Made by a program: the position numbers and the translations under genes. Below are positions 1 to 40,684 of a stretch of 64,000 nt of DNA, one piece after another (the first letter of the stretch is position 1; every line of letters begins with the position of its first letter). Source of the DNA: an uncultured Sphingomonadales bacterium (GTDB lineage Bacteria; Pseudomonadota; Alphaproteobacteria; Sphingomonadales; Govanellaceae); NCBI GenBank assembly GCA_964508185.1, contig CAZDSS010000002.1, positions 6,674 to 70,673 of the forward strand. The letters run 5' to 3'. A model generated the notes under the pieces. It ran no database searches. It saw nothing but the letters and a program-made list of their open reading frames with translations, and was not told the origin of the DNA.

Positions 1-147
1 CCGCATCTTGCCCGCGATCTCCTCGATCTGGGCCAGCATCTGGGCGCGGACCGCGTCGCGATCCTTGAGACGCTCCACCGACCGCGCCGCGATCTGGAAG
101 GCGAGCGCCGCATAGGGCGCCGGAGTCTTGTCCCCTGCCCCGCTCAT
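1..147 (-). CDS. Partial CDS (first 49 codons, runs off the window edge). Possibly a carbon-nitrogen hydrolase family protein.
   Basis: The minus-strand ATG at 147 overlaps the stop of the upstream FAD-oxidase gene (ATGA at 144-147). Translation is MSGAGDKTPAPYAALAFQIAARSVERLKDRDAVRAQMLAQIEEIAGKMR... The layout resembles the N-terminus of the CN-hydrolase at 27924-29057 (LGVAQSR...KANLQHMLNLID). 49 aa is too short for a firm call. Confidence 0.35.
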   Translation of the reverse strand, partial: MSGAGDKTPAPYAALAFQIAARSVERLKDRDAVRAQMLAQIEEIAGKMR

Positions 148-1712
148 GGCGCGAGCCCCAGACTGCCGGGGTTCATGAGATTGCGCGGGTCCACGTTGCG
201 CTTGATGGCGCGCAGGATCTCCCACGCCCGGGGATCCGTGGTCTCGGCCAGCGGATAGGTGCGCGCGACCTGAAGATGGGTGGCATCAAGCCCCTTGAAG
301 ACATCCACAATCGCGCGCCGCAGCCGCTGCACGAGGGCGCGGGATTCCGCGTTTTCCGGGAAGCGCTTGAGCTTGGCCAGGTGATCGGGCTCCAGCGACC
401 GGCAATGAATGTCGTCGAGCGCATCCGGCCAGAAGAACACGGGCTCGATCAGGCAGGTGGAGGTATCGACGGCGGCGAGCAGCGCGCCCGCGCCGACGCC
501 GAGCCGGTCCATCTCCGCGCTGTTCTCGGAAAACAGCCCCTGGATGCGGTTCCAGCCCTCGATCATGCGGCTGTGCGGCAGGAAGCCGTGCACCGGCACC
601 CAGCGCTCGCCCGCGGGCCCGACCATGGAATTCACCGGCGGGAACGGGTTGGCGCGCATGATCTTGGGGATGGTGTTCTCGATCGCCTTGCCGCCGAAGC
701 GCCGGGCGATCTCGTCGATCGCCGCGAGATCCGCATCCACCGCGGCCTGATGGCGTCCCTCGCATATGAGATGGAGGGAGAACGGCACGTCGTCGAGGAA
801 GGACCGGCCGGCCATCACCACCTTGGCCCCTTCCTTGAGGGCCTTCCAGGCGCTGCCCTGGGCCTTCATCATGTTGACGAGGGCCTTGGCGTCCTTGGAC
901 AGGCTGTCGCGCTTCATGCGCTGGGCCTGGAGATAGGGATCGAAGCCGAAGCTTTCGGAGGCGAGCCCTTCCCGCGCGATGGCGCTCATGGCGCCGAAGA
1001 AGGCGTCGGCGTCCGGCATGGCGAAGGAGCCGTAGGCGAAAGCCTCAGCTTCCCGCACCAGTTTGAGGGTTACCGTGGCCTTGATGCCGAGCGCGCCGCA
1101 ATCGGCGGCGAAGATGCCGGTGACATCGGGCCCGTAGGGCCGGAAGAATTGGGATCCCGTGCTGACGATGGCGCCGTCCGCCAGCACCACCTCGAAGCTC
1201 ACGGCGGCGTTCACCACGGTGCCGTTGCGCGCGCCCCAGAAGATGCCGTTCTGGCTCATGCCGCCGCCGACGGTGGCGTTGATGCCCGAGAGCGTCCCCC
1301 ACACCCTGGCGCGAAGGCCCCTGGGCTTGAGCGCCGCATGGAGCTTGGCCCAGGTGCAGCCCGCCTCGACGGTCGCCGTCATGTCCTCCTCGTTGATCTC
1401 GAGGATGCGGTTCATGGCGGCGGTGTCCACAAGGAGCGCGGCGGAGGTGGGCGCGAGGTACCCGCCCGTATAGCTCATGCCGCCGCCGCGCGGGATGACG
1501 GCAAGACCGGCACTGGTCGCCGCCGCGATCCCGCGGGCGAGCATGTCCTTGTCCGTCGGGCGGAAGATCGCGACCACTTCCGCGCCGCGGGAATAGACGT
1601 CCTGGGAGTAGAAGCGGCGCTCGGCCGCGTCGGTCACGAGATTTTCGGGCCCGACGGCCCGGGCAACGGGATCAAGCACTTCGACAGAAACCACACTTTC
1701 GTGCGCCATCAA
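144..1712 (-). CDS. FAD-binding (PCMH-type, GlcD-like) oxidoreductase
   Basis: 522-aa ORF with the FAD-binding motif AVIPRGGGMSYTGGY and VEAGCTW...LKPRGL. It is a clear paralog of 24913-26496. A 4-bp overlap couples it to the upstream MFS gene. Confidence 0.85.
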   Translation of the reverse strand: MMAHESVVSVEVLDPVARAVGPENLVTDAAERRFYSQDVYSRGAEVVAIFRPTDKDMLARGIAAATSAGLAVIPRGGGMSYTGGYLAPTSAALLVDTAAMNRILEINEEDMTATVEAGCTWAKLHAALKPRGLRARVWGTLSGINATVGGGMSQNGIFWGARNGTVVNAAVSFEVVLADGAIVSTGSQFFRPYGPDVTGIFAADCGALGIKATVTLKLVREAEAFAYGSFAMPDADAFFGAMSAIAREGLASESFGFDPYLQAQRMKRDSLSKDAKALVNMMKAQGSAWKALKEGAKVVMAGRSFLDDVPFSLHLICEGRHQAAVDADLAAIDEIARRFGGKAIENTIPKIMRANPFPPVNSMVGPAGERWVPVHGFLPHSRMIEGWNRIQGLFSENSAEMDRLGVGAGALLAAVDTSTCLIEPVFFWPDALDDIHCRSLEPDHLAKLKRFPENAESRALVQRLRRAIVDVFKGLDATHLQVARTYPLAETTDPRAWEILRAIKRNVDPRNLMNPGSLGLAP

Positions 1713-2977
1713 TGGGCTCCAGCAGGCTCAGCACGCGGGTCGACGAGCTCCTCGACCGTTGGGTAACGCCCGAGGCCGAGCAGCACCGCCCCGCCCGATG
1801 CAAAGAGGATCATGGCCGCCCCGAGGATCAGATCATAGCTCCCCGTGGCGTCGCGCGAGATGCCGTAGAGGATCGGCGATATGGCGGAGCCGATCCCGAA
1901 CGGCATGTAAAGGACGCCGTAGATCTTGCCGTAATGGGCCATGCCGAAATACTTGGCGGCGAGATAGGCGATGACGTCGGATTCCGCCCCCGCCGCGAAG
2001 CCGAGGAGGAAAGCGCCGAGCAGCACCAGGACGAGGCTGGTGCCGGTGCCCATCAGAAGCCAGCAGGCAATCGCCGGCGACAGCAGGGCCGGAAAGGCCA
2101 CGCCCGGCGCCCAGAAGCGGTCGAACAGGAAGCCGACGATCAGGCGCCCGGCGAGAATGCCGACGGCGACGACGCCGAGGACGCTCGCCGCCACATCCGC
2201 CGAAAAGCCGTGGAGCGACACGATCTGCGCGATATGGATATGGGCGCCGCCATAGGCGAAGGCGGTGAGCAGGATGGACGCCATCAGGATCCAGAAGCGG
2301 TAGCCCCGCGCCGCGGTGCGGAGCGTGAGGCCCGAAAGCTGCCCTTGCGCATTGGCGATGCCGGCCGGTCGTTCCTCCGGCCGCGGCTCACGGAACCACA
2401 GCAGGCCGACGGGCAGCGCGATGAACAGCGGCAGCAGCGCCACCACGGGGAACGCCATGCGCCAGCCCCCGGCGGAGATCGCCGCCTGGGCGATCTGCGG
2501 CACCGTGACGGCGGCAAGGCTCGTCCCCAGCAGCATGATGCCGAGGGCGAGGCCGCGATTGCGGTTGAACCACATGCTGATCGCCCGGCTCCAGGTCACC
2601 GGCGTCGAGCCGATGCCGATCGCGCCCAGAACCGCCCAGAACAGCCAGTAGCCGAGCTTCGACTGGGGCAGCAGATAGAAGGACGCGAAGACCAGGGCGA
2701 AAAGAAACAGGGATGTAAGCGCCACGGGGCGGACGCCGAAGCGGTCGGACAGACCACCGAACACCGGCGCCAGCAGCGAGGCGATGATGCCGAATACCGT
2801 CACACCTGCGCTGATCGAGGCGAAATCCCAACCAAACTCCAGATGAATCGGTCCCATGACAAGCGGGAGCACGTTGAAAGGGAGTGGCGAGGCTCCGCAC
2901 GCCACTCCCAGCAACGCTGCAGCCAGCGGCTTGGTGCCCAGTTTGAACTCCGAGCCCGCGCGTTCGGCTAGCGTCAT
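1709..2977 (-). CDS. MFS transporter
   Basis: Polytopic hydrophobic protein with about 12 TM segments. MFS loop motif GGLSDRFGVRP. I chose the ATG at 2977, which is preceded by GAGGAA; the ORF track starts at a GTG at 2992. Confidence 0.85.
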   Translation of the reverse strand: MTLAERAGSEFKLGTKPLAAALLGVACGASPLPFNVLPLVMGPIHLEFGWDFASISAGVTVFGIIASLLAPVFGGLSDRFGVRPVALTSLFLFALVFASFYLLPQSKLGYWLFWAVLGAIGIGSTPVTWSRAISMWFNRNRGLALGIMLLGTSLAAVTVPQIAQAAISAGGWRMAFPVVALLPLFIALPVGLLWFREPRPEERPAGIANAQGQLSGLTLRTAARGYRFWILMASILLTAFAYGGAHIHIAQIVSLHGFSADVAASVLGVVAVGILAGRLIVGFLFDRFWAPGVAFPALLSPAIACWLLMGTGTSLVLVLLGAFLLGFAAGAESDVIAYLAAKYFGMAHYGKIYGVLYMPFGIGSAISPILYGISRDATGSYDLILGAAMILFASGGAVLLGLGRYPTVEELVDPRAEPAGAH

Positions 2978-3007
2978 ACTTTCATTCCTCACAAAAGATG
3001 GCCCGGC

Positions 3008-5503
3008 TTAGAAATTATGCCGGGCGCGAACCATCCACCGCATCGGCGGGTCGAGATAGTAGCCGTTGGCCAGCGAGGTGTTCCCCGCAGTTTCGTTGAA
3101 GCAGTTGGTGCATTCAAGGGCCAGCTGCCACTTCTGTTCGGGACCGTTGAGCGCGAGGCTCGCGTTCACGAACCAGGCCTCACCCGAATAGGAGCCGGTG
3201 ATGAATTCGCCGCTGAACGGGTTCGACGGGAAGCTGCCGTTGGCGCCCGTGATCGAGCCCGAATAGATGCTGAAGTTGCTGGCGGCCACTTCCTGGCTGC
3301 TGCGGTAGCTGAGGTTGACGGACGGCACGAGCGTCATGCCGTTCTGACCGATGGGCTGTTCGTAGCTCGCACCCACCGCCAGGGTCACCTTCGGCGTCCG
3401 GGTCGGCTTGGAGAGCTCGCCCTTGGCGTTCACGATACCCGCGCCGCAGGTGGCCGCGCCGGGACCGCTCGGGATCAAGCCCGCCGCCAGAGCTTCCTGG
3501 CACGCCCGCTGCTGCGCCGCCACGGACTGGATGCCGTACTCGTCCTCATCCGGCGCGTTGCGGTCGATCTTGTACTTCGCGTCCTGCAGGCCGACATTGA
3601 GGTAGAGGCTCATGCGATCGGTCGGCATGTAGGTGAATTCGGCCTCGATACCCTTGTTCTCAAGGCTCGCGAAGTTGCGGGTGATGAAGGTGATGGCGCC
3701 CGTGGGGCCGACGAGACCCGCCGGGGTCTGAAGGTCCGACACGTCCACATAGAACGCGGTGATGTTGGCGCGGAGCCGCCGGTCGAAGAGGTCGGACTTG
3801 ACCCCCGCCTCATAGCTCCAGACCGTTTCCGGACCAAAGGGCTGGAAGGCGTTGGGCGCGGTGCTGCGCGCGTTCCAGCCGCCCGACTTGAAGCCGCGGG
3901 TGGCGGAGGCGAAGAGCATCACGTTGTCCGAGGCCTTGAAGTCGATGGCGAAGCGCGGCGTCCACTTCTTGGTTTCAAGCTCGGTGGGGATCACCTTGTT
4001 GGAGGGGGCGATCAGGTTCTCGTTGACGAGACAGTTCGCCTCGACCGTGCCGTCGTTGCAGGACGCGCGGTTGTCGGTCACCCGCACGGTCTTGGTTTCA
4101 TCCGTGTAGCGGACACCGGCGGTCAGCGTCAGCTGCTCGGTGACATGGAAGTCGGCCTGCAGGTAGCCAGCGTAGGCTTCCGTCTTGTTGTAAAGGAGCC
4201 GGTCGGCGAGGAGCAGCGGCACGCCGGAGCCGAGGGTGAAGACGTCGGCGAAGTCCGTATGGTTCTTTTCGTTGATGTAGTAGCCGCCGCCCACGAAGTC
4301 GACGAGACCGTTGAACAGCGTGCCGTTCAGCTTGATTTCCTGGGTGAACTGCTCGTGCTTGCCGTCGTTGACCACGGTGAAGCCGCCGTGCGGGAAGCCC
4401 TGCACCGGCGGGATGGGATTGCTGAGGGTCGCCCCCGTGCGGCCGTCATAGAAGTCCAGGGCATATTGCTGGACCTGATGTACGTAGCCGGAGATGAAGC
4501 TCAGCGTCAGGTCTTCGCTGATGTCGATGGAGAGATCGGAGGTCGCGAGATCCGTATCCGTCCGGTTGCCCTGCAGGTAATATGCCTTGCGACCCGTGAT
4601 GCCGAGATCGACGAAAGGCGAGTCCGCGGAGGTGCTGCCGGAACGCAGGCCGGTCGTGGCGAAGCGGCCGTTGCAGTCCGAAGGATTGGCCGGGTTGCAT
4701 TCATAGTTCAGGATGTTTTCGGCGTCCGCGGCGATGCGGGCATAGGAGCTGCGCCACCGCACGTTGTCCGCGAAGTCGGCGCGAACGCCAAGGCGGACAC
4801 CCCAGCCGTCCTCGTCATTGAGGCGCTGGTTGGTGGTGACGTTCTTCACGTAGCCGTCGTCATCCTGCCAGTAGCCGGACAGCTTGATCGCGAACTTCTC
4901 GGTGAACGGAACGTCGAAGGAGCCGCGCACCATCATCTTGTCGTAGCGGCCATAGCCCACTTCCGCGTATCCGCCGAACTCCTCGCCCGGATCGCGCATG
5001 ATGACGTTGACCGCGCCGCCCGTGGTGTTGCGCCCGAAGAGCGTGCCCTGCGGACCGCGCAACACTTCGACGCGCTCCACGTCGAAGAGGTTGATGTTGT
5101 TGGCGTTCTGACGGCTGAGATAAATGTCGTCCACATAGGTGCCGACGGGCGGGTCGAAGGTCGGGATCGATTCGGTGTTGCCGAGACCGCGGAGATAGAA
5201 GGCGTTCGCCGTACCCGCGCCCGTGTTGTTCATGGTGATGAGGTTGGGGACGAATCGGCCGAGGTCGAGGGTGTTCGAGATGCCCTGACGCATCAGCTGG
5301 TCGTTGGAGAAGGCGGAGACGGCGATCGGCACGCTTTGCACCGTTTCCTGGCGACGCTGCGCCGTCACGACGATGTCCTCGATGCCGCGCCAGACGGCGG
5401 CGTCCTCCGTGGCCGCAGGCGCCGCGGCGTCCTGCGCATACGCGGAAACTGTCGCCAGCGAGGTCACAAGAGCCGTGCTGGCCACACACAATATTCTCTT
5501 CAT
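3008..5503 (-). CDS. TonB-dependent receptor
   Basis: 831 aa. Signal peptide MKRILCVASTALVTSLATVSAYAQ. Plug region IVVTAQRRQETVQSVPIAVSAF and VEVLRGPQGTLFGRNTTGGAVNV. Beta-barrel ends in Phe. Confidence 0.92.
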   Translation of the reverse strand: MKRILCVASTALVTSLATVSAYAQDAAAPAATEDAAVWRGIEDIVVTAQRRQETVQSVPIAVSAFSNDQLMRQGISNTLDLGRFVPNLITMNNTGAGTANAFYLRGLGNTESIPTFDPPVGTYVDDIYLSRQNANNINLFDVERVEVLRGPQGTLFGRNTTGGAVNVIMRDPGEEFGGYAEVGYGRYDKMMVRGSFDVPFTEKFAIKLSGYWQDDDGYVKNVTTNQRLNDEDGWGVRLGVRADFADNVRWRSSYARIAADAENILNYECNPANPSDCNGRFATTGLRSGSTSADSPFVDLGITGRKAYYLQGNRTDTDLATSDLSIDISEDLTLSFISGYVHQVQQYALDFYDGRTGATLSNPIPPVQGFPHGGFTVVNDGKHEQFTQEIKLNGTLFNGLVDFVGGGYYINEKNHTDFADVFTLGSGVPLLLADRLLYNKTEAYAGYLQADFHVTEQLTLTAGVRYTDETKTVRVTDNRASCNDGTVEANCLVNENLIAPSNKVIPTELETKKWTPRFAIDFKASDNVMLFASATRGFKSGGWNARSTAPNAFQPFGPETVWSYEAGVKSDLFDRRLRANITAFYVDVSDLQTPAGLVGPTGAITFITRNFASLENKGIEAEFTYMPTDRMSLYLNVGLQDAKYKIDRNAPDEDEYGIQSVAAQQRACQEALAAGLIPSGPGAATCGAGIVNAKGELSKPTRTPKVTLAVGASYEQPIGQNGMTLVPSVNLSYRSSQEVAASNFSIYSGSITGANGSFPSNPFSGEFITGSYSGEAWFVNASLALNGPEQKWQLALECTNCFNETAGNTSLANGYYLDPPMRWMVRARHNF

Positions 5504-5577
5504 GTGGTTTCCCTTCCCAAGAATTGCTTCGATACCCCGTGCGGGGATTGCACCTTGACGGCGCTACGCATTTTTGT

Positions 5578-5620
5578 ACTTGTCTGGACAAATTTTCATG
5601 TAATGTACGAACTGTCAAGC
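5578..5620 (-). promoter_or_regulatory. Putative promoter plus operator for the TBDR/MFS/FAD-oxidase operon (operator copy 1, TTGTCTGGACAA at 5580-5591)
   Basis: Read on the minus strand: TTGACA (5618-5613), a 17-nt spacer containing TG, AAATTT, then the palindrome TTGTCCAGACAA. A 43-nt block is 34/43 identical to 29217-29259. Confidence 0.6.
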
Positions 5621-5646
5621 AGCCAAGCATCAAAGGGGAGAAAACG

Positions 5647-6327
5647 ATGGCGCTTTCCGATCTGGCCTATCCCAGTCTGGTCTATTTCCACATGTTTCTC
5701 TTCGTCATGTGGCTTGGCGCCGACGTGGGCGTCTATCTCGCCGGCCAGCATTTCCGAAAACGCGAAATTTATTCGCTGGATCAGCGGATTGCGCTGTTGA
5801 AGCTTCTCGTTCTGATCGACATGACGCCGCGCTCCGCCTGGGCGCTGATGGTGCCGGTGTCGCTCTCCGTCGTCACCATGGGCGGCTACTGGGCGGTGCC
5901 CGCCTGGCTGCTGATTCTCGCCTGGGTCATCGCCGGCATCTGGCTGTGGCTCATCTGGGACGCCCACTATCACGACATGACGCCGCGCGCCGCCCGCAAC
6001 CGGCGAATCGAGAGCTGGCTCCGAATCGGGCTCACGCTGTTCTATCTCTGGCTCGGCATCCAGTCGCTGCTGACCAACGCGCCGCTCGAGCCCGACTGGC
6101 TGGCGTCCAAGGCGCTTCTGTTCGGCCTGATCTTCGCCGCCGCCATCATGATCGACGTCACCTTCAAGCCGGTGGGGCCGCAGCTTGGCCGGCTCCTCAA
6201 GGAAGGCTCCAGCGACGAGACGGAAATTCCGCTGCGCCGGACCATGGACCGCACGCGGGTCTGGGTGCGCATCACCTATCTGCTTCTGGTCATCATCTCC
6301 TATGTGGGCCTGGTGAAGCCATTCTGA
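5647..6327 (+). CDS. Polytopic membrane protein of unknown function (paralog family M, copy 1)
   Basis: 226 aa starting at the ATG at 5647, preceded by AGGGGAG. About 6 TM segments. Shares H-x6-WLGAD and IDxxPR motifs with 26481-27143 and 35900-36583. Confidence 0.8.
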   Translation: MALSDLAYPSLVYFHMFLFVMWLGADVGVYLAGQHFRKREIYSLDQRIALLKLLVLIDMTPRSAWALMVPVSLSVVTMGGYWAVPAWLLILAWVIAGIWLWLIWDAHYHDMTPRAARNRRIESWLRIGLTLFYLWLGIQSLLTNAPLEPDWLASKALLFGLIFAAAIMIDVTFKPVGPQLGRLLKEGSSDETEIPLRRTMDRTRVWVRITYLLLVIISYVGLVKPF

Positions 6328-6359
6328 TGGCTTCACCGCGGCGGATGGCGAAGCGCGAC

Positions 6360-6387
6360 TTGAAATTTGTCTGGACAACCTTATAAG
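6360..6387 (+). promoter_or_regulatory. Putative sigma70-like promoter with embedded operator copy 2 (TTGTCTGGACAA at 6367-6378)
   Basis: TTGAAA (6360-6365), a 16-nt spacer, then TATAAG (6382-6387). The palindrome lies inside the spacer, directly upstream of the CitE-like gene. Confidence 0.55.
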
Positions 6388-6407
6388 CTGTGACCGGGAG
6401 TGAGGAA

Positions 6408-7244
6408 GTGAGCAGAGTGGTATCCTTCGCCAGCATGTTGTTCGTGCCCGGCAGCCGGCCGGAACGCTTCGCCAAGGCGCTGGCGAGCGGCGCCGACATC
6501 GTCTGCATCGACCTTGAGGACGCGGTGCCCGCGGCCGACAAGGCGGCGGCGCGGGCGGCGGCCCTTGAGGCCATTGCCATCATCGACGGACGCGAACGGC
6601 TGGCGCTGCGCATCAACGGCGTCACCACCCGCGCGGGCCTCGAGGATCTGGTGGCGCTCGCCGATGCGGCCGTACCCCCTGCCCTTCTGTTCGTGCCCAA
6701 GGTGGAAAGCAGCGCCGAGATCGCCGTCATCCGCGGCGCTCTGGGCGACAAGGCGCCGGGCATCGTGCCGCTCATCGAAAGCGTCGCAGGCATGGATGCG
6801 ATTCGCGACATCGCCCGGGCGCCGGGTGTCGCCGCCATGATGTTCGGCGGCGGCGACTTTGCGGGCGAACTTGGCGTCGAACTCACCTGGGACGCGCTTG
6901 CGACGGCGCGCGGGCTTTTCGTCATGGCCTGCGCGGGGGCCTGCATTCCGGCGATCGACGTTCCCTATCTCGCCCTCGACGACGCGGAAGGGCTGCTGGC
7001 CGAATGCAGGGCCGTGAAGCGCCTCGGGTTCACCGCCAAGGCGGCGATCCATCCGGCGCAGGTTGCCGCCATCAACGAGACATTTCGTCCCACCGCCGCC
7101 GAGATCGCCGAAGCGCGCGAGGCGGAAGCCGCCTTCATCGCGGCGAACGGTGCGGCGGTCAGATTCAAGGGCCGCATGCTCGAAGCACCGATCATGCGCC
7201 GCTATCAGAGGATTCTAGCAATGGAGAAGATTCACAATGCGTGA
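6408..7244 (+). CDS. HpcH/HpaI aldolase / citrate lyase beta (CitE)-like acyl-CoA lyase. Candidate citramalyl- or malyl-CoA lyase.
   Basis: N-terminus SMLFVPGSRPERFAKALASGADIVCIDLEDAV is typical of CitE-like lyases. I chose the GTG at 6408 (GGGAGTGAGGAA upstream); in-frame GTGs at 6390 and 6417 are alternatives. Confidence 0.85.
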   Translation: MSRVVSFASMLFVPGSRPERFAKALASGADIVCIDLEDAVPAADKAAARAAALEAIAIIDGRERLALRINGVTTRAGLEDLVALADAAVPPALLFVPKVESSAEIAVIRGALGDKAPGIVPLIESVAGMDAIRDIARAPGVAAMMFGGGDFAGELGVELTWDALATARGLFVMACAGACIPAIDVPYLALDDAEGLLAECRAVKRLGFTAKAAIHPAQVAAINETFRPTAAEIAEAREAEAAFIAANGAAVRFKGRMLEAPIMRRYQRILAMEKIHNA

Positions 7245-7746: not shown

Positions 7747-7758
7747 GGACCGCCTGAA

Positions 7759-10118: not shown

Positions 10119-10122
10119 GACC

Positions 10123-17243: not shown

Positions 17244-17259
17244 ATCAAGGAGAAGTCCC

Positions 17260-21963: not shown

Positions 21964-21974
21964 GTCGCCCTCCG

Positions 21975-33322: not shown

Positions 33323-34612
33323 TCAGCAACCATCCGTCACGGCGCGCGTCAGGCGGCGGAAGGCCGGATAGGCGCCCGCAAGGAGCAGGAAGGATCCCGC
33401 GGCCGATCCCGCGAAGGTCGCGGACAGCGCAAGATCGATGGCCGAGCCGCCGGGCCAGAAATCGTTGAGCGAGCCCACCGCGAGCGGCCCGAAGGTCGCC
33501 GAGACGAGCCCGACGAGGGCGGTATAAAGGGCCGTCATGCGGCCGCGGAGCTCGTTCGGCGTGATGTCGGCGATGGCGGCGAGCACCGCGACCGCGGGAT
33601 AATTGGCGAAGACGCCGGACAGCGCGAACAGCGCCATGCACCATTTCCCGTCCGGCATCAGGGGCGCGAGCGCGCCGGGCACGAGACAGGCGAGCGAGCC
33701 CCAGAGGCATACGAGCCAGGACGCATGGGCGAAGCCGCGGCGGGTGAGCCAGTCGGTGACCCAGCCGACGGAGACGGAGCCGAAGACGCCGACCACGCCC
33801 GCAATCGCGCCGAAGACCAGCGCCACGTCCTGCGCCGCCCAGGCGTATTTGCGCATGAACAGGGCGGGCATGAAGGCAAGCTGACCGTACATGGCGGCGA
33901 AAGCGAAGGCGACGCCGCCGAAGAGCGCGGCGAAGACCCAGCCGCGGCGGAGAACGAAACGCACCGCCGCCCCGTGGGACACCGGCTCCTCGCTCAGTTC
34001 CTGCCGCACCGGCTCGCGAAAGCCCATGAGCAGGATGGGGATCAGAAGCCCGAGCCCGCCGAGCAGCATCATCGCCGCCTGCCAGTCGGCCACACCGAGA
34101 GGGCCTGCCATCAGGCTGCCGACGGCGACCGCCGCCGCCGCCGCGAAATAGGCGCCCGAGGTACCAAGGGCCGTGCCCGCGACGAAGACGCCGTAGCCCG
34201 TCGCCCGCCGCTCTGGCGGGAACATGTCGGCGATGAGTGACGTGGATCCCGGCTGCACGATGGATTGCGCCGCGCCGGTAACGATGCGGCCGACCACGAT
34301 GCTCATGTAAGAAAAGACGCCGAAGGCCGTGCCCGCGCTCCAGATCAGGGCGCAGACCGCAATGAGGCGCAGGCGATGGAAACGGTCCACGAGCCAGCCC
34401 ATGAACGGCGCAGAGAGGGTATAGGGTATGGCGAAGCACGCCCCGGTGATGAGCCCGATCGCCGTGTCGCTGAGGGCGAGATCGGCGCGCATGGGCTCCA
34501 CGAAAAGGCTGATGCCGATCCGGTGCAGGAAGCCGATGGCATAGGCGAAGGTGAGCGCAAGCGTCATGCCCCAGGCCGCGCGCGTCGATGGCCATTGTGT
34601 CGCCGGGATCAT
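33323..34612 (-). CDS. MFS transporter
   Basis: 429 aa, about 12 TM segments. MFS loop motif MGWLVDRFHRLR. Confidence 0.85.
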   Translation of the reverse strand: MIPATQWPSTRAAWGMTLALTFAYAIGFLHRIGISLFVEPMRADLALSDTAIGLITGACFAIPYTLSAPFMGWLVDRFHRLRLIAVCALIWSAGTAFGVFSYMSIVVGRIVTGAAQSIVQPGSTSLIADMFPPERRATGYGVFVAGTALGTSGAYFAAAAAVAVGSLMAGPLGVADWQAAMMLLGGLGLLIPILLMGFREPVRQELSEEPVSHGAAVRFVLRRGWVFAALFGGVAFAFAAMYGQLAFMPALFMRKYAWAAQDVALVFGAIAGVVGVFGSVSVGWVTDWLTRRGFAHASWLVCLWGSLACLVPGALAPLMPDGKWCMALFALSGVFANYPAVAVLAAIADITPNELRGRMTALYTALVGLVSATFGPLAVGSLNDFWPGGSAIDLALSATFAGSAAGSFLLLAGAYPAFRRLTRAVTDGC

Positions 34613-35919
34613 GCACTCAACTCCTGCACCACAAGAGGCCGCCCCACCCGGCGGAGCACCAGAAGGCCCGCAATGAGCAGCAGGGCGGCGACGCCGAAGA
34701 CGCCAAAGCGCTGCTCCCCCGTGATCACGGTGGAGAGCGCCACAAAAAGCGGCGCCATGAAGGATGACGCCCGCCCGATCATCACGTAAAGCCCGAAGGC
34801 TTCGCCGAGGGCGTCGGGATCGGCGAGAGAGACGAGAAGCGACCGGCTCGCCGCCATGATGACGCCGAGCATGCCGCAGGCGGCGACCGCCAGGGCGAGA
34901 TAGGCGTAGTCGGCGGGCCCCGTGAAGCCCCCGCCAGCGCCGCGCGCCGTCGCGATCACCAGCGCAAGCGCCCCCGTGATGGCGAGCAGGCCGGAAAGCG
35001 CCAGCACCAGCGTGCGGCGCGTGCCGAACAGCCCTTCAAGCCGCCCGGCGACGAGCCCTGCCGCAGCGCCGGCGATGAGGCCGAGGAAACCGAACACCGT
35101 CACCTCCGCCGTGCCCCAGCCGAGACGAGTCGCGGCGACGATGGAGATGAATGAGAAAAGGCACATGGTGCCGTCCCAGTAGAGCATGCGCGCAAGCAGA
35201 AAGGTGCGAAGGCCCTTCTGCGCCATGAACCGGGACCAGAGGCCCGAGAGCTCGCGAAAGCCCCGGGCAACCGCCGCGCCGAGCGACGCCTCGCTCCGCG
35301 CCGCGGGCTGCGGGCAGAACAGAAGGCACGGCAGAATGAAAAGGACGAGCCACAAGCCGCTTCCTGCGGAAAGCGCCCGCGCCGCCACATCATCCCCCAC
35401 CCCCGCCGCCGTCGCGCCGTAGCCGAGGCCGAGATAGAGAAGGCTCGCGACGAAGCCGAGCCCCACGCCAAGGCCGCTCAATTTTCCGGTCTCCGCCGCG
35501 GGCACAAGCCCGGGCAGCAGGCTGTCCGTATGTATGCGCGACCATTCGATCCCGAGCTGGGCGAGGCCGACGGACGCCAGCACCCACAGCACATGCCCCG
35601 GCGTGGCGGAGGCGAACCACAGGCTCAGAAGCGCCGCACAGGCAAGGGCGACGCTCATCACCAGCCACGGCCGCCGCGTGCCGGTGGCGTCCGCCAGCGC
35701 CCCGGCGACGGGCGCCGTCAGGATCAGGGTGAGGCTCGTCGCCGACAGGCCATAGCCCCACCAGGCGGTGCCGCGCACCGGGTCCGCGGCCACGACGCTC
35801 ACGAAGAAGGGCGGAAAGGCGAGCGACAGCACGAAGGAGAAGAACGGCTCCCGCGCGAAGTCCGCAAGCGCCCAGGACAGGCGGGCGCGGCCCGCTTTCT
35901 CAGACAAACTTGGCCACAC
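34609..35919 (-). CDS. MFS transporter, UMF1/Atg22-like subfamily
   Basis: 436 aa. N-terminus SWALADFAREPFFSFV is typical of UMF1-type MFS. The GTG at 35919 is taken from the ORF track; the TTG at 35907 is an alternative. It overlaps the upstream membrane gene. Confidence 0.78.
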   Translation of the reverse strand: MWPSLSEKAGRARLSWALADFAREPFFSFVLSLAFPPFFVSVVAADPVRGTAWWGYGLSATSLTLILTAPVAGALADATGTRRPWLVMSVALACAALLSLWFASATPGHVLWVLASVGLAQLGIEWSRIHTDSLLPGLVPAAETGKLSGLGVGLGFVASLLYLGLGYGATAAGVGDDVAARALSAGSGLWLVLFILPCLLFCPQPAARSEASLGAAVARGFRELSGLWSRFMAQKGLRTFLLARMLYWDGTMCLFSFISIVAATRLGWGTAEVTVFGFLGLIAGAAAGLVAGRLEGLFGTRRTLVLALSGLLAITGALALVIATARGAGGGFTGPADYAYLALAVAACGMLGVIMAASRSLLVSLADPDALGEAFGLYVMIGRASSFMAPLFVALSTVITGEQRFGVFGVAALLLIAGLLVLRRVGRPLVVQELSA

Positions 35920-36583
35920 CGAGCACTACCATCACACCGGACAGGGACCACATGCCGAAGGCGATCCAGCGCGCCCGGGCGAGGGAATCCGTGAAGAGGG
36001 CGTCCACCTCGGGGCTTCGCCCCTCGGTCGCGAGGCGCCGGAAGCCTTCGGCCCAGGCGCGCATGATGTGACGCAGGATGAGGCCCACCACGATCATCAG
36101 GCCAAAGACCAGAATCTTCGCCGCGATGAAGGTATGCGGGATCGGGTCGTCGGTCGCGAGCGACCACAGGCCGATGCCGATGAGCACCGGCGCCATCGCC
36201 ATGCGGATCCGCGTGTCGATCAGGCGGATGCGGTCGCCAGCAGGCGAGCCCATCCTGCGGTAGCCGTTGATGTTGAGGACGAGCCAGGCGATGCCGAGGA
36301 TCCAGACCGCGATCATGAACGGCCCCGTGGGCGACCACAGGCCGTAGAAGGATGCAAGCTGCAGGCCCACGGGCAGAAGCAGGGTGAACGCCATGCGCGG
36401 CATCAGGTCGATGCGGAACGCCGCCTGCAGGAAGCGCCGCCGCTCGTCCATGGGCAATTCCGGATTGGCGACGTAGCGGGAGGTGACGAACACCCCCCAG
36501 TCCGCGCCGAGCCAGTAGGCGAACAGCAGCACATGCACGATCACGAAGACGGTATGGACGGTCATGGGTTGGCACCCCGTCAC
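35900..36583 (-). CDS. Polytopic membrane protein of unknown function (paralog family M, copy 3)
   Basis: 227 aa. Motifs H-VLLFAY-WLGAD and RIDLMPR. The GTG at 36583 overlaps the stop of the upstream family-S gene (GTGA). The ATG at 36565 is an alternative. Confidence 0.8.
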   Translation of the reverse strand: MTGCQPMTVHTVFVIVHVLLFAYWLGADWGVFVTSRYVANPELPMDERRRFLQAAFRIDLMPRMAFTLLLPVGLQLASFYGLWSPTGPFMIAVWILGIAWLVLNINGYRRMGSPAGDRIRLIDTRIRMAMAPVLIGIGLWSLATDDPIPHTFIAAKILVFGLMIVVGLILRHIMRAWAEGFRRLATEGRSPEVDALFTDSLARARWIAFGMWSLSGVMVVLGVAKFV

Positions 36584-37290
36584 ATGGAAAGTTCAACGAG
36601 CTCGTAGGTGGTGGCGAGATAGCCGCCGACCCGGATCTTCACGAAGATGAAGTCGTCGGGCAGGCACCACAGCTCTTCCGGCGGATGCTCCTTGGGCAGC
36701 GCGCCCGCGAGATGGAACAGATAGCTGTCCACCTCGAAGGTGCCGGCGCGCACCGTGATGGTCTCGCGCCCGCGATATTCGATGCCGAAGCGGATGGGCA
36801 GGATCATGGGCCCACCGCTGCCGTCATGCTCCAGCGAACTCAGGTAGGACCGCTCCATCATCTGGACGCCGCCCTTCTTGTGGTCGTAGGCGGCAAGATG
36901 CCAGATGTCGCAGGACAGGGGGTGAGGTCCGAAGGTCTCGATGGGCGACGGCAGGCTGATGCGCTGGTCGATGCGGCCGAGATCGCGGTTCCAGCTCTGG
37001 AGCTCGATCTCCGTGCCGTTGAAGCGGTACCAGCCGGTGCCCTGCAGGCTGCCGTCCTTGATGAGACGGATATAGCTGTCGATGGGCCGGAAATTGCGGT
37101 CCACCGAATAGACGATGTCCTTGGACAGCGCCCGGTCGAAGATTTCGCATGTGGCGTGCAGCGTGCGGCTGCCGTCGGGGGCGACGCTCACCGAGAAGCG
37201 CTCGGTGCCGCGCAGGCCGACCTCGTCCCCGATGGCCTCGATGACGCCCGCGTAATGGCGGCGTCCCTGCCCTTGCGATCGTGATGACAT
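36580..37290 (-). CDS. Cytoplasmic protein of unknown function (paralog family S, copy 2)
   Basis: 236 aa from the ATG at 37290, preceded by GAGGGAGGG. Collinear with 27140-27892. Confidence 0.8.
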   Translation of the reverse strand: MSSRSQGQGRRHYAGVIEAIGDEVGLRGTERFSVSVAPDGSRTLHATCEIFDRALSKDIVYSVDRNFRPIDSYIRLIKDGSLQGTGWYRFNGTEIELQSWNRDLGRIDQRISLPSPIETFGPHPLSCDIWHLAAYDHKKGGVQMMERSYLSSLEHDGSGGPMILPIRFGIEYRGRETITVRAGTFEVDSYLFHLAGALPKEHPPEELWCLPDDFIFVKIRVGGYLATTYELVELSM

Positions 37291-37363: not shown

Positions 37364-39649
37364 TTACATCTGGTAGCGCGCGGTGAGCGTCCACATGCGC
37401 GGCGGATTGAAGTAGATGGCGTTGAAGCCGAGCGCCGGGATGAAGAACTGGCCGGTGGAATATTCTTCCTTGAACAGGTTCTTCACCGCGAGCGCAAGAC
37501 GGAAGCGGCTGTCGTCCGTCTCCCAGGCGACCTGCGCATCCACGAGATCATAGCCGTCCTCGCGCGACGCCACCGGGTTGCAGGAGCTGTGATAGTAGCC
37601 GCTCTTGCGGGTCCAGTTGCCGCCGATGGACATGGTGCCGCCCAGCACCTCGGGGATCGCGTAGTCGATCGCAAGGTTGCTCGAGAAGCTCGGCGCGAAC
37701 TTCTGCCGGAGCTTCGCCGTGCCGGTGCCCACCGGGCCGCAGTCCGCCACCTGGTCGAAATTGATCTTGGTGTACTTGTTGGCGAGATAGCCGACCGAGG
37801 CATTGACCTGCAGATTGCGGATGGGAAGCGCGGTCAGTTCAAGCTCCACGCCCTCGGTGCGCACGTCGCCCACGGAGAAGCGGGTGAGCGCGCCTGTCAC
37901 CTGGTCGGTGCCGGTGCCCTGCAGATCGTCGATCTCGTTGCGGAACACGGCCACGTTGGTGCGCAGGCGGCGGTCGAGCCAGTCGGCCTTGACGCCCGCC
38001 TCATAGGCCCAGACCTTCTCCGGCGCGATGGGCTCGAGCTTGTAGAGCTGGGTGCTCATCTCGCGGCCGTCGAACGCGCCCGACTTGAAGCCCTTGGAGA
38101 CCGAGGCATAGAGCAGCAGGTCATCGCGCACCGCGTAATCCACCGCAAAGCGCGGCGTGACGGAGGACCAGCTTTCCTTGATCTGGCGGGCGAGCGGCAC
38201 GGTGACCGCGCCCGCCGGGCTCGCGCCGTCGCACGGGCCGGCGGAGAACACGTCGCGGCCCACGGGCGCGGCGCAGATCAGGCTCGGCGAACCGTCGGGA
38301 TGGAACATGGCCGAGGCGAAATCCTTCTCGTCCCGGGTCCAGCGGATGCCGGTCGTCACCGTCCAGCGGTCGGAAAGGTGCCACGAGCCCGACGCGAAGA
38401 CGGCGATGCTGTCCGTATCCAGCGTGGTGTCCGCATAATCGTTGGCGCCAGCAGGCGCGAGGATCATGTTCTCGGTGATCTGGCTGTTTTCCTCGCGGAA
38501 CCAGTAGACGCCGACCACGTAATCAAGCAGTCCGCCGAAGGCCTGGCCGGACGCCTGCAGTTCCTGGCTGAACTGCTCCTGGTCCTGGTCCTGATAGAGA
38601 TGGAGGCACGGCAGATCGAAGCCGAAGCAGGTATCCTGCCCGTCGGCGTCCAGTACGAATTCGGAGCTCATCTCGCGCCAGGCGGTGATGGAGCGCAGCG
38701 TCACCGCGCCGAGATCGTAGCTGATGTTGAGCGAGGCGCCGCGCTGGTCGATCTCGCTCATGGGGTTCGTGAGATCGGAGCGCAGGGTGTAGACGTCGCG
38801 GTCGCCGTCCACCTGCTGGTTCTTGTCCCACAGGCCGAGATCCGCCGGCGGCTGCAGGAGGACGCCGGTCGCGAACGCCGGGTCCGAATGGTCGCGGATC
38901 TCGTCATAGGAAATGAGGATGTCGAGGCGCTCGTTGGGCTGCCAGCGCAGGGAGGCGCGGCCCGCCAGCACGTCCTGATCGTTGACGTCGGCGCCGTTCA
39001 CCAGGTTCTTGGCCCAGCCGTCGCGCTGGCGCGACAGGAAGGCAAGCTGGCCGTAGAGCCCTTCGGCGAGCTTGCCGGAGACGCTCGCGCGCACGTCGAT
39101 CCGCTCGTGATTGCCGACGGTGCCTTCGAGCATCAGGCGGGTTTCCTCGTCCGGCTTGCGGCTCACGAGCTTGATGGCGCCGGCCGAGGTGTTGCGGCCG
39201 TAGAGCGTGCCCTGCGGTCCGCGCAGCACTTCGATGCGCTCGATGTCGTAGAGGTCGAACAGCGCGCCGTTCTGACGCGGAATGTAGACGTCGTCCACAT
39301 AGATCCCGACCGGCGGGTCGGAGGTGAAGAAGCTTTCATCCTCGCCGATGCCGCGGAGCGCGGCGCGGGCGCCGTTCTGCAGGCCCGTATTGGGCTCCAT
39401 CCAGAGGTTGGGGACGAAGTTCTGCACCTCGCGGACGGAGAAGACCTGCATGCGGTCGAGGGCGTTGGCGTCAAAGGCGCTGACCGCGATCGGTACGTCC
39501 TGCAGACGCTCCTCGCGGCGCTGGGCGGTGACGACGATCTCGTCGAGGGCGATGCCCTCCCGCAGCTGGGCGTGGCCGCTGTCGGCGACGAATACGGATG
39601 AAGCAAGGGCAATAGGCAGTACTAACGAACGACCAATGGCGTGATCCAT
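37364..39649 (-). CDS. TonB-dependent receptor
   Basis: 761 aa from the ATG at 39649 (GGGAGGA upstream). Plug region IVVTAQRREERLQDVPIAVSAF and IEVLRGPQGTLYGRNTSAGAIKL. The C-terminal residue is Met rather than the usual aromatic. Confidence 0.9.
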   Translation of the reverse strand: MDHAIGRSLVLPIALASSVFVADSGHAQLREGIALDEIVVTAQRREERLQDVPIAVSAFDANALDRMQVFSVREVQNFVPNLWMEPNTGLQNGARAALRGIGEDESFFTSDPPVGIYVDDVYIPRQNGALFDLYDIERIEVLRGPQGTLYGRNTSAGAIKLVSRKPDEETRLMLEGTVGNHERIDVRASVSGKLAEGLYGQLAFLSRQRDGWAKNLVNGADVNDQDVLAGRASLRWQPNERLDILISYDEIRDHSDPAFATGVLLQPPADLGLWDKNQQVDGDRDVYTLRSDLTNPMSEIDQRGASLNISYDLGAVTLRSITAWREMSSEFVLDADGQDTCFGFDLPCLHLYQDQDQEQFSQELQASGQAFGGLLDYVVGVYWFREENSQITENMILAPAGANDYADTTLDTDSIAVFASGSWHLSDRWTVTTGIRWTRDEKDFASAMFHPDGSPSLICAAPVGRDVFSAGPCDGASPAGAVTVPLARQIKESWSSVTPRFAVDYAVRDDLLLYASVSKGFKSGAFDGREMSTQLYKLEPIAPEKVWAYEAGVKADWLDRRLRTNVAVFRNEIDDLQGTGTDQVTGALTRFSVGDVRTEGVELELTALPIRNLQVNASVGYLANKYTKINFDQVADCGPVGTGTAKLRQKFAPSFSSNLAIDYAIPEVLGGTMSIGGNWTRKSGYYHSSCNPVASREDGYDLVDAQVAWETDDSRFRLALAVKNLFKEEYSTGQFFIPALGFNAIYFNPPRMWTLTARYQM

Positions 39650-39751
39650 GGAAATCCTCCCGAAATCTCCCACAGTGACCGGCGCTTGTGCCCGATCATC
39701 CAGCTTCATGCTGGGCCGCAGATCGCCTTCAAGGCCATCAACTAGTTGTCT

Positions 39752-40684
39752 TTATCGGCAACCCGCGGTTGGCAGGGTTGCGGAACTCCCCTTCGCCACG
39801 ATCTTGCGCACCTCGTCGAGGAAGCGGACGGAATCGGGCGAGCGCGTGCTGTTCTTGCGGAAGAAGACGGCGGTGGGCCGCTGCCACGGCGGCGAGGCCA
39901 CGTCGATCACCGCGAGCAATCCCGCCTCCACGTCGCGCCGCACCATCTCGTAGGGCAGCAGGAACAGGGCGTCCGACGCCTGGGCGAGGCTGACGGCGAA
40001 GGCCACCGAATCCGTCCGGAACTGGGCCTGCGGCGGCTCGAGCCCCGCGGCCTCGAAGCTTTCGCGCGCTTCCTCGATCGCCCGGTCCTCGTCCAGTCCC
40101 ATGATCCAGGGATAGGTTTCAAGCTCCTCGAGGGTCACGGCCTTGCGCCCGGCCAGGGGGTGTCCCGCGCGGCCGAACAGGTGATAGGTTTCCTGATTGA
40201 CGATGTGATGGCCGATCAGGGGATCCACCTCGTCCCGCGTCATGATGCTGACGAAGACGTCGATCTTGCCGTTGACGAGCTGCGGCATCAGGGTTTCATA
40301 GGTCCCTTCCACCACGGTGACCGAGAGCTTCGGATTCCAGCGCTTCACGGCCAGCACGGCGCAGGCGGCGATCTGCATGGCCGCGGCGGCGCCGACGCCG
40401 ATCGCGAGATCGTTGGTGCCCGTGCCCAGCATCTGGTCGAGATCGCGGCGGAGGCTCCGCACCTCGGCGTCGATGTTGCGGGCATAGGCCTCGATGCGCT
40501 CGGCGAAAAGGGTCGGATTCACCGAGCGGCTGTCGCGGTCGAACAGCCGGACGCCGAGGCTTTCCTCGAAACGGCGGATGCTCTTGCTCAGCGCCTGGGG
40601 CGTCAGATGGCACATCTCCGCCGCGCGCCAGTAGCTTCGCGTTTCCATGAGCGCCAGAAAATGGCGCAATTGCCGGATCTCCAT
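39752..40684 (-). CDS. LysR-family transcriptional regulator
   Basis: 310 aa. HTH MEIRQLRHFLALMETRSYWRAAEMCHLTPQALSKSIRRFEESLGVRLFDR. Same strand as, and directly upstream of, the TBDR cassette. Confidence 0.9.
   Translation of the reverse strand: MEIRQLRHFLALMETRSYWRAAEMCHLTPQALSKSIRRFEESLGVRLFDRDSRSVNPTLFAERIEAYARNIDAEVRSLRRDLDQMLGTGTNDLAIGVGAAAAMQIAACAVLAVKRWNPKLSVTVVEGTYETLMPQLVNGKIDVFVSIMTRDEVDPLIGHHIVNQETYHLFGRAGHPLAGRKAVTLEELETYPWIMGLDEDRAIEEARESFEAAGLEPPQAQFRTDSVAFAVSLAQASDALFLLPYEMVRRDVEAGLLAVIDVASPPWQRPTAVFFRKNSTRSPDSVRFLDEVRKIVAKGSSATLPTAGCR

Follow-up and report, generated by a model that had tools for sequence, protein, structure and literature searches.

A palindromic operator marks three TonB-dependent uptake cassettes and a central catabolic block in an uncultured Sphingomonadales bacterium

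The DNA considered here is a stretch of 64,000 nucleotides (hereafter "the window") from an uncultured Sphingomonadales bacterium of the Govanellaceae (assembly GCA_964508185.1, contig CAZDSS010000002.1, positions 6,674 to 70,673), whose first 40.7 kb carry three gene cassettes, A, B and C, each with its own TonB-dependent receptor (TBDR), a central catabolic block located between cassettes A and B, and six sites of a 12-bp palindrome, TTGTC-YR-GACAA, regarded here as an operator. Since two of these six sites lie at the 6.4–20.9 kb block, the functional unit would be one regulon of about 40 kb, and it is very likely that the stretch 1–40.7 kb, inclusive of the 6.4–22.3 kb block, is indeed a single regulon. 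The locus is best described as a conserved, HutC-operator-marked variant of a TBDR-linked catabolic locus, endowed with two uncharacterised protein families, here called M and S, and with an unusual clade of nitrilase-fold proteins.

Genes and operator sites

Reading frames were judged by their third-position G+C (GC3), which separates real genes from the many shadow open reading frames (ORFs) of the window, whose G+C ranges from 62 to 71% (2-kb windows), and start codons were refined by independent gene calls on other contigs. The GC3-supported ORFs and their Pfam matches bear out the gene coordinates and family calls of an earlier description made from the letters alone (the sequence-only reading), as well as its view of the cassettes as TBDR-based uptake and catabolic units.

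In cassette A, receptor A (TBDR_A, 3008–5503, minus strand) is followed on the same strand by an MFS permease (MFS_A, 1709–2992; Pfam MFS_1, 2.3e-38), 422 residues long in the gene calls on independent contigs, and, overlapping the latter by 4 nt, by FAD oxidase A (144–1712), a flavoprotein of the VAO/PCMH superfamily lacking a signal peptide and recognized by FAD_binding_4 (6.7e-29) with a FAD-oxidase_C tail. Each of the three receptors A, B and C combines the Pfam domains Plug (PF07715) and TonB_dep_Rec_b-barrel (PF00593). Downstream of FAD oxidase A, translation of the frame at 1–143 (minus strand) gives the 5′ portion of a gene cut off by the window edge. This fragment of only 47 codons has no signal peptide, and its alignment with the N-terminus of the canonical CN hydrolase of a Stenotrophomonas cluster (26% identity over 38 residues, E 2.8) is not significant; its product is possibly a cytoplasmic canonical CN hydrolase, and the wording "possible CN hydrolase" of the sequence-only reading is a fair one for an identity that is unproven and has this match as its sole support. 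In the search for sequence beyond the left edge, contigs carrying TBDR_A were seen to end inside FAD oxidase A, exact-match look-ups with FAD oxidase A and M_A gave no hit and no contig reaching past the edge was found. Divergently from TBDR_A is encoded M_A (5647–6327, plus strand), a six-helix membrane protein of an uncharacterised family to which its paralogs M_B and M_C also belong.

The central block begins with a five-gene operon (6390–11214, plus strand; Pfam), hereafter the HpcH operon, encoding an HpcH/citramalyl-CoA-lyase-like protein, a MaoC/itaconyl-CoA-hydratase-like protein, an acyl-CoA dehydrogenase (ACAD) and two family III CoA-transferases. It is followed by the gene of a GntR regulator of the HutC subfamily (11216–11977, minus strand), with a winged helix-turn-helix (wHTH; PF00392) and a UTRA domain (PF07702), and by the nine-gene PrpD operon (12138–20924, plus strand; Pfam and NCBIfam), whose products are two MmgE/PrpD proteins, a PaaK-like CoA ligase, an amidase-signature amidase, a HapK/REDY protein, an SDR, a polysaccharide-deacetylase-like hydrolase, an enoyl-CoA hydratase (ECH) and a VOC/glyoxalase-like protein. 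Two further genes (20989–22283, minus strand; Pfam), a Zn-ADH/quinone-oxidoreductase-like one and one with a YCII domain, lie downstream of receptor B.

Cassette B, entirely on the minus strand save for its divergent regulator, comprises receptor B (TBDR_B, 22345–24729), FAD oxidase B (24913–26496; FAD_binding_4, 3e-34), the six-helix membrane protein M_B (26481–27143), the DUF3108-like beta-barrel protein S_B (27140–27892), an exported nitrilase-fold protein ("CN hydrolase", 27924–29057; CN_hydrolase, PF00795, 6.9e-22) and p174 (29409–29933), a small conserved protein with a weak match to DUF3598_N (E 0.003) that is probably lipocalin-like; divergent from p174 is LysR_B (approximately 30040–30945, plus strand; HTH_1 and LysR_substrate). 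Genes S_B and M_B overlap by 4 nt, M_B and FAD oxidase B by 16 nt. A CHRD-domain protein (31110–31739, plus strand), found conserved only in contigs of the same species, separates LysR_B from cassette C.

Cassette C, likewise on the minus strand, starts with LysR_C (39752–40684; Pfam) and continues with receptor C (TBDR_C, 37364–39709), S_C (36580–37290), M_C (35900–36583), which was recognized by blastp paralogy and overlaps the next gene by 20 nt, two MFS permeases, of which the transcriptionally upstream one (34609–35919) is ATG22/UMF-like and the other spans 33323–34612 (Pfam), and, as last gene, a TRZ/ATZ-type, deaminase-like amidohydrolase (31746–33212; Amidohydro_1, 8e-55) whose top NCBIfam matches are deaminase and chlorohydrolase families, all under their cut-offs. 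The window was also inspected for riboswitches or tRNAs hinting at substrate or mobility, and none was found.

The palindrome occurs as an exact copy of TTGTCTGGACAA at 5580–5591 (O1), 6367–6378 (O2), 24800–24811 (O4, on the minus strand), 29219–29230 (O5) and 40708–40719 (O6), and as an imperfect copy with two mismatches, TTATCCGGACAA, at 12088–12099 (O3), between GntR and the first gene of the PrpD operon (PrpD1). Counted by strand, the window holds 12 matches against 1.6 expected, a number reached in none of 100 shuffles. All six sites are intergenic and lie 24–162 nt upstream of a start codon: O1 in the divergent promoter region of TBDR_A (77 nt) and M_A (56 nt), O2 approximately 30–40 nt before the HpcH start as set by independent contigs, O3 39 nt from the start of PrpD1 (12138) and 111 nt from that of the divergent GntR, O4 71 nt before TBDR_B, O5 162 nt before the nitrilase-fold gene and O6 24 nt before LysR_C. 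Thus, the operator precedes not only genes of the cassettes, for which a common operator and a shuffled gene order had been claimed and both hold, but also the HpcH-MaoC-ACAD-CoA-transferase operon and the PrpD-to-glyoxalase operon, both of which lie outside the cassettes as originally drawn.

Promoter boxes were read by eye from an alignment of the operator regions. On the TBDR_A strand, a TTGACA box is found 15–17 nt before GAAAAT, the operator coming after, while O2 is placed between TTGAAA and TATAAG. The segment GAAAATTTGTCYRGACAAG is common to the promoters of TBDR_A, TBDR_B and the nitrilase-fold gene, and in both the first and the last of these a TTGACA box lies 15–17 nt upstream; furthermore, 24 nt of the O1 and O5 regions (5578–5601 and 29217–29240) are 96% identical, with the TTGACA box equally distant, which suggests that the TBDR_A and nitrilase-fold promoters may be built on a common promoter–operator cassette. 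A strict sigma-70 promoter scan of 5450–6450 gave no match. The operator overlaps or abuts the six promoters, and its geometry would suit a repressor.

No site is present in the remaining part of the window (40.8–64 kb), and O6 marks the right border of the regulon. Directly to its right lie COX2/COX1 oxidase genes (41110–43264), accompanied, in independent gene calls on same-species contigs, by a cytochrome c gene, and then an SDR (44134–44907) and a PepSY_TM protein (45010–46083); the 41110–46083 neighbourhood stays with cassette C in same-species contigs (L004–L006). Farther on, the interval 46193–54430 holds a fourth TBDR (52196–54430, minus strand) and then three amidohydrolase-family genes, one of them fused to PD40 beta-propeller repeats (46193–49387). 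This locus contains neither M, nor S, nor TTGTC-NN-GACAA and is a separate uptake locus outside the regulon.

Conservation and age of the cassettes

S_B, whose sequence recurs with 100% identity in a Sphingomonadales metagenome-assembled genome (MAG), has more than 1000 homologs. A narrow pattern scan of species-representative genomes yielded 334 relatives, and all window proteins were mapped onto the loci of the best 80 (S identity 54–77%), which belong to Sphingomonadales, Steroidobacter, Stenotrophomonas, Thermomonas, Hyphomonas, Rhodospirillales and many Chromatiales-type MAGs. In this set, TTGTC-NN-GACAA was found at 50 sites in 1.4 Mb, distributed over 32 of the 80 loci, as opposed to 0.70 ± 0.97 in shuffles, and in Sphingomonadales, Stenotrophomonas, Steroidobacter and Thermomonas it occupies orthologous promoters, namely those of M_A, TBDR_A/M_A, TBDR_B, S_B and the HapK-SDR-deacetylase-HpcH operon, the last being preceded by the operator in both Stenotrophomonas and Thermomonas. 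The position equivalent to O4, upstream of TBDR_B, is occupied in eight loci (L011, L014–L017, L021, L024 and L025). The literature searched for the operator sequence offered nothing relevant.

The Sphingomonadales share the order LysR, p174 (divergent), nitrilase-fold gene, S, M, FAD oxidase, TBDR, YCII, ZnADH, then VOC, ECH, deacetylase and SDR, which is the 17.5–30.9 kb part of the window read in reverse and in which the TBDR_B-YCII-ZnADH order is kept; the SDR, deacetylase, ECH and VOC genes that adjoin cassette B in other sphingomonads are syntenic and 64–89% identical. Orthologs of TBDR_B are 60–67% identical, those of LysR_B 56–67% and those of FAD oxidase B, always placed after M_B, 49–72%, p174 being the most conserved protein of the cassette (75–86%). 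Paralogs resembling p174 (44–50% identity) adjoin family III CoA-transferase genes in L008, L018, L022, L035 and L080.

As to cassette A, the divergent M_A/TBDR_A pair is retained with the operator in between in Parasphingorhabdus-type loci (L027–L031), where TBDR_A orthologs are 54–56% identical; M_A orthologs (66–72%) are found in these loci, in Stenotrophomonas and in Pelagerythrobacter, and a FAD oxidase A homolog (44%) adjoins an MFS_A-like gene and a CN hydrolase in a Hyphomonas locus (L054). Cassette C recurs in Sphingobium chungbukense as an autonomous operon of the same order (LysR-TBDR-S-M-MFS-MFS-amidohydrolase), placed on a contig other than that of cassette B, and is present also in a gammaproteobacterial MAG; the palindrome accompanies it in neither genome. 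Both MFS genes are conserved in L091 and L092, where the M profile matches the M_C orthologs; the nearest M_C representative is 76% identical, and S_C has 71 homologs, the exact protein being found on 23 contigs.

In Stenotrophomonas, two deacetylase genes and, farther on, the series M_A (70%), cytochrome c, VOC, S_B (64%), M_B (68%) and FAD oxidase (56%) are followed by ALDH, a canonical CN hydrolase, ECH and GntR. In the locus of Stenotrophomonas terrae (L043, 8297–12958), the proteins encoded between M_A and S are a lipoprotein cytochrome c with a CTACH motif and a small VOC protein, and an ETF-QO gene and a PEP-mutase/methylisocitrate-lyase-like gene lie upstream; in a Chromatiaceae MAG (L067), genes for ETF alpha and beta adjoin S. 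Elsewhere, S is embedded among HapK, MaoC, ACAD and CoA-transferase genes (L046, L080 and L084; in L046 as HapK-MaoC-ACAD-CoA-transferase-CoA-transferase-S, in L080 as MaoC-ACAD-CoA-transferase-S-SDR), while in L095 M and S stand with a FAD_binding_4 oxidase, an MFS permease, a family III CoA-transferase, an HMGL-like lyase and an aconitase-type dehydratase, the last three amounting to a further form of hydroxy/branched-dicarboxylate module. These arrangements speak for a functional tie between S and the CoA block. Other neighbours of S are asparaginase II, an AstE/aspartoacylase-type enzyme, an HDAC-like amidohydrolase and an isochorismatase. This recurrence of several amide-hydrolase folds around S in unrelated genomes makes an amide or nitrogen theme, in line with the amide-containing substrates previously proposed, plausible; no riboswitch offered a clue to the exact compounds. 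One locus (L093, 7170–10981) carries five tandem S-like (DUF3108-like) paralogs and no M gene, next to sdhCDAB, a methyltransferase, MFS, VOC, luciferase-like monooxygenase and HpcH lyase genes.

An all-against-all blastp comparison of the window proteins confirmed that the FAD oxidases (A/B, 39% identity, E 3e-103), the two S proteins (S_B/S_C, 34%, E 2e-43) and the three M proteins (M_A/M_C, 28%, E 8e-25; M_B/M_C, 28%, E 1e-19; M_A/M_B, 22%, E 4e-8) are true paralogs. The LysR proteins B and C are 38% identical, and receptors A and C 33% (289 bits, compared with 56–88 bits to an unrelated TBDR of the same window), and both pairs are closer to each other than to unrelated members of their families. 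These relationships, together with the shared families (TBDR, M, S, FAD oxidase, LysR) and the common operator, are what can be said for a single ancestral cassette having been duplicated in this lineage, its copies diverging toward related substrates, as the sequence-only reading had it when taken literally. However, the comparison with related genomes that it called for shows that every window paralog is matched, at 54–77% identity, by separate orthologs in other alpha- and gammaproteobacteria, as opposed to the 22–39% found between the paralogs, a difference indicating that the cassettes do not stem from a recent local diversification. Indeed, M_A, M_B and M_C fall into three separate deep subfamilies at the 30% clustering level, a pattern pointing away from lineage-specific sister pairs, cassette C is encountered alone on another contig or in another genome, and blastn detects no DNA similarity between cassettes beyond the FAD-binding and Plug/barrel coding cores and the 24-nt promoter/operator segment. 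With these data and the shuffled gene order, a recent segmental duplication is ruled out, and duplication within this lineage appears quite improbable: any common ancestry must predate the spread over Alpha- and Gammaproteobacteria. On the evidence of these comparisons, the three cassettes are taken to be ancient, separately conserved modules, capable of existing apart, that may go back to a very old common ancestor.

The M, S and nitrilase-fold proteins

The M and S proteins of the window match nothing in Pfam or NCBIfam, not even at E = 10. M_B is modelled by AF2 with six helices (pLDDT 89.9), and its fold finds no match in the PDB. The family is small: a profile search of 1.84e9 representatives yielded only 748 clusters, almost all of approximately 220 residues, in which H10, W17, G19, R42, D53, W94 and K149 are invariant, the single invariant His being located in the first transmembrane helix (TM1). 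The topology is predicted to be N-out/C-out, with three conserved polar segments on the cytoplasmic side that constitute a plausible docking face for S. A CopD/HemJ-like identity, suggested by a single UniRef name and by an H-x6-W-x-G motif, was rejected, there being no Pfam match among 29 members, no PDB fold match and an hhalign probability of 0.5% with YebZ of E. coli, a protein of the CopD family (PF05425). Also abandoned was the search for an M–S fusion that could serve as a Rosetta stone, the two long hits (P0258, 456 residues, and P0377, a truncated protein of 314 residues) proving to be M–M tandems. These tandems, together with the two M types that Stenotrophomonas encodes around S, suggest that M forms dimers, so that the acting unit probably has 12 helices in all.

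S_B is predicted by AF2 to be an all-beta open barrel (pLDDT 91.6). Its best PDB match is 6NTR, a DUF1849 beta-barrel-like protein of Brucella abortus (Foldseek E 2e-6, TM 0.52–0.60, 10–11% identity), followed by structures of putative Bacteroidales lipoproteins or exported proteins and by a LolA3 structure. DUF3108 (PF11306) is matched weakly by 29 of 37 S homologs (best E 1e-4), the window S proteins giving no match even at E 10, and the literature searched for this family provided nothing relevant. Thus, S resembles the open barrels of the DUF1849 (6NTR), DUF3108 and LolA-like type in predicted fold and size, but differs from them in lacking a signal peptide and in its genetic coupling with both a membrane protein and catabolic enzymes. 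Forty-two residues never vary within or between the S_B and S_C types, and many are polar (R33, E36, E55, D58, D65, R82, H130, D135, Q151, S159, S160, H163, Y233, Y238 and E239 among them), which suggests an active or catalytic site or one for a specific ligand. Of the 80 loci, 62 have M no farther than 10 kb from S, and in approximately 45 the two are adjacent.

In the exported nitrilase-fold protein of cassette B, Glu105 and Lys180 of the nitrilase triad are kept and the catalytic Cys is replaced by Ser229, as judged from the alignment with NIT4, in which AMSSVQREPE of the window protein faces AICWENRMP with identical spacing to the Pro anchor. In all 18 orthologs examined this position is Ser or Thr, never Cys, with Glu and Lys retained. 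A twin-arginine signal, SRRxLLGAAGG, is conserved, Hyphomonas having instead a lipoprotein-type signal. Compared with the amidases of the nitrilase superfamily (AmiE, Nit2, NIT4), the protein has the same CN_hydrolase fold and the same conserved Glu and Lys, but it has a Ser in place of the nucleophilic Cys and is exported via the twin-arginine signal. On these sequence grounds, it is assigned to an exported, Cys-less clade of the nitrilase superfamily, a clade that appears undescribed, nothing relevant on Cys-less nitrilases having been found in the literature; its members could be hydrolases with a hydroxyl nucleophile or binding proteins.

Regulation, proposed pathway and alternative readings

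The GntR protein with its UTRA domain (11216–11977) is the only regulator inside the central block. Operators of the GntR family conform to the consensus NyGT-Nx-ACNy, with a spacing of 4 nt in most HutC-type sites and of 3 nt in FadR-type sites (PMC4494728), and at the six promoter regions TTGT-CYRG-ACAA fits NyGT-N4-ACNy with the HutC-type spacing. The same palindrome accompanies another GntR+UTRA protein in Stenotrophomonas, the two DNA-binding domains being approximately 46% identical (hand count on the alignment), and regulators with this architecture are found in both alpha- and gammaproteobacterial loci. The window GntR is thus a predicted repressor, and a likely one, of the genes behind the operator, while LysR_B and LysR_C probably add cassette-specific control. 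The similarity with the HutC-subfamily repressors HutC and NagR/DasR (PMC4494728, PMC4333415) extends from the combination of wHTH and UTRA and the 12-bp palindrome with GT-N4-AC to operators overlapping uptake and catabolic promoters and to a site in the regulator's own divergent promoter, here the imperfect O3. On the other hand, the core TTGTC-YR-GACAA has a G+C-rich centre, unlike the A/T-rich GTMTAKAC, and in the window two LysR regulators are layered on top.

The enzymes of the central block recall a characterised cluster for itaconate and methylsuccinate degradation, which comprises Ict, Ich, Ccl, a methylsuccinyl-CoA dehydrogenase, an MmgE/PrpD-type methylsuccinate isomerase and a VOC-type 2-hydroxyparaconate lactonase (PMC12290011, PMC9875883). 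In common with this cluster of Pseudomonas aeruginosa and Cupriavidus necator, the window has an HpcH lyase, a MaoC hydratase, an ACAD, a family III CoA-transferase, MmgE/PrpD and VOC proteins; it differs in having two CoA-transferases and two PrpD paralogs, in the divergence and size of its VOC protein (300 residues versus 127 in RdoPA) and in the inclusion of the module in a larger regulon with amidases, a PaaK-like ligase and TBDRs. The best NCBIfam matches are RipC/Ccl for the HpcH gene (235 bits, cut-off 375), RipB/Ich for the MaoC gene (247 bits, cut-off 340) and succinyl-CoA:mesaconate CoA-transferase for the CoA-transferase (226 bits, cut-off 700); since equivalog level is not reached in any of the three cases, these are enzymes of related chemistry rather than the same enzymes. 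Judging from these family matches, the chances that the shared sink is a C5-dicarboxylate-type CoA module are about evenly balanced.

The resemblance of the central block to itaconate/methylsuccinate degradation suggests a scheme in which acids containing nitrogen are taken up, undergo de-amidation or oxidation and end up as branched C5-dicarboxylyl-CoA. In this scheme, GntR would bind the palindrome at the six promoters until released by an effector, upon which seven transcription units would be switched on: TBDR_A-MFS_A-FAD oxidase A and the gene next to it; M_A; the Ccl/Ich/ACAD/CoA-transferase operon; the PrpD-PrpD-ligase-amidase-HapK-SDR-deacetylase-ECH-VOC operon; TBDR_B-YCII-ZnADH; the nitrilase-fold gene (possibly with p174) followed by S_B, M_B and FAD oxidase B; and LysR_C-TBDR_C-S_C-M_C-MFS-MFS-deaminase. 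Each cassette would act as a front end that imports, through its TBDR, one of several related organic acids containing an amide, imide or amine nitrogen, passes it through the inner membrane and carries out the first oxidation, de-amidation or deamination. The carbon skeletons would then converge, as branched C4/C5-dicarboxylyl-CoA esters, on the CoA-transferase, dehydrogenase, hydratase and lyase module, which, working in the manner of itaconate/methylsuccinate degradation, would yield pyruvate or glyoxylate plus acetyl- or propionyl-CoA. As a whole, the model of three uptake cassettes and a shared CoA sink under a GntR-type operator seems rather probable to us. Far more tentative is the part assigned to M and S: M would be an inner-membrane device conducting or processing the substrate and handing it over to S, a cytoplasmic protein, often translationally coupled to M, that would receive it on the conserved cytoplasmic face of M. 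With similar reserve, M and S may be proposed as a new inner-membrane module coupling TonB-dependent uptake to cytoplasmic catabolism, and the Cys-less nitrilase-fold protein as a Ser/Thr hydrolase or a periplasmic binder.

Several points weigh against parts of this scheme. The operator could be bound by the LysR proteins or by an unlinked factor instead of GntR; the cassette C loci of other genomes lack the palindrome, and the membership of this cassette in the regulon may be recent and loose. With scores below the equivalog cut-offs, the true acyl-CoA may be other than a C5-branched dicarboxylate. The case for M as a transporter is weakened by the MFS permeases that cassettes A and C already possess, and an obligate M–S complex is unlikely, given that S occurs without M in 18 of the 80 loci (five of them with full flanks) and that M_A has no adjacent S in the window. 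Finally, the exported nitrilase-fold protein may be catalytically dead.

The strongest rival, itself rather unlikely in our judgement, concerns the same proteins and holds that M, S and the FAD oxidase make up a membrane-bound respiratory dehydrogenase, the cassettes being oxidation rather than transport modules; the VAO-type flavoprotein would oxidise a (hydroxy)acid, M would serve as anchor and electron exit (quinone or haem, by way of the invariant His) and S as adaptor or assembly subunit. Both FAD oxidases match FAD_binding_4 (PF01565) strongly and PF02913 over only the last 30 or so residues, and the closest solved relatives of FAD oxidase B are D-lactate and D-2-hydroxyacid dehydrogenases and flavocytochrome PCMH of the PCMH/VAO group, aligned over the FAD domain only. 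This kinship would favour an oxidative role, as would the translational coupling and constant adjacency of M_B and the FAD oxidase, the lone invariant His of TM1 with the conserved Arg and Lys, and the cytochrome c, ETF-QO and ETF genes met near S in Stenotrophomonas and in the Chromatiaceae MAG. However, the ETF genes may merely serve acyl-CoA dehydrogenases, no haem- or quinone-binding family is detectable for M, and cassette C as well as many gammaproteobacterial loci possess M and S but no flavoprotein.

Two further alternatives were considered. That the cassettes serve the uptake and recycling of metal chelates or siderophores, rather than carbon and nitrogen catabolism, is suggested by the three TonB-dependent receptors, by the PepSY_TM protein nearby (45010–46083) and by the fact that iminodisuccinate epimerase is among the relatives of MmgE/PrpD, but is very improbable in view of the extensive CoA-dependent carbon pathway under the same operator, of regulators of the catabolic GntR/LysR type and of a locus in which siderophore components of the ABC or periplasmic-binding kind, a FecIR or Fur-type context and a riboswitch are all missing. 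Scarcely credible is the idea that the cassettes are functionally unrelated neighbours and the 12-mer a genomic repeat devoid of regulatory meaning: while the motif is indeed missing from cassette C in other genomes, all six window sites are intergenic and promoter-proximal, the motif has the shape of a HutC operator and its enrichment in the window recurs, at orthologous promoters, in related loci of other classes.

Among known systems, TBDR-centred catabolic loci in general resemble the window in clustering a TBDR and an MFS or other inner-membrane transporter with degradative enzymes and dedicated regulators (here two LysR and a GntR). The bile-salt side-chain cluster of Sphingobium sp. Chol11, substrate-induced and composed of TBDR, MFS and amidase with CoA-dependent downstream steps (10.1101/2021.05.19.444901), was considered as the identity of the locus and discarded, since the gene content does not match: the Rieske monooxygenase and steroid genes of the Chol11 clusters have no counterpart among the window family calls, and the window for its part has three TBDR cassettes, one operator shared with a C5-dicarboxylate-like module, M members in all three cassettes and S members.

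Significance for proteobacterial catabolism

The operator-marked regulon, whose core proteins are without assigned function, extends over Sphingomonadales, Stenotrophomonas, Steroidobacter and Hyphomonas as well as a large number of uncultured Gammaproteobacteria. Its short palindrome offers a handle for predicting regulon members across genomes, and the effector of the candidate repressor would reveal the substrate. To the nitrilase superfamily is added a natural, periplasm-exported clade in which the Cys has become Ser or Thr. Itaconate-type C5-dicarboxylate catabolism would be extended to substrates taken up through TonB-dependent receptors, with a bearing on how organic acids and amides from plants, fungi and microbes are turned over in soil and water. 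As for M and S, their genetic setting points to a new step lying between import across the outer membrane and catabolism in the cytoplasm; if the proposed role is true, the M–S module would be either a new family of secondary transporters with a cytoplasmic acceptor or a new membrane redox enzyme, at work in hundreds of proteobacterial species in a widespread pathway whose amide- or imide-type precursors lead to branched C5-dicarboxylates.

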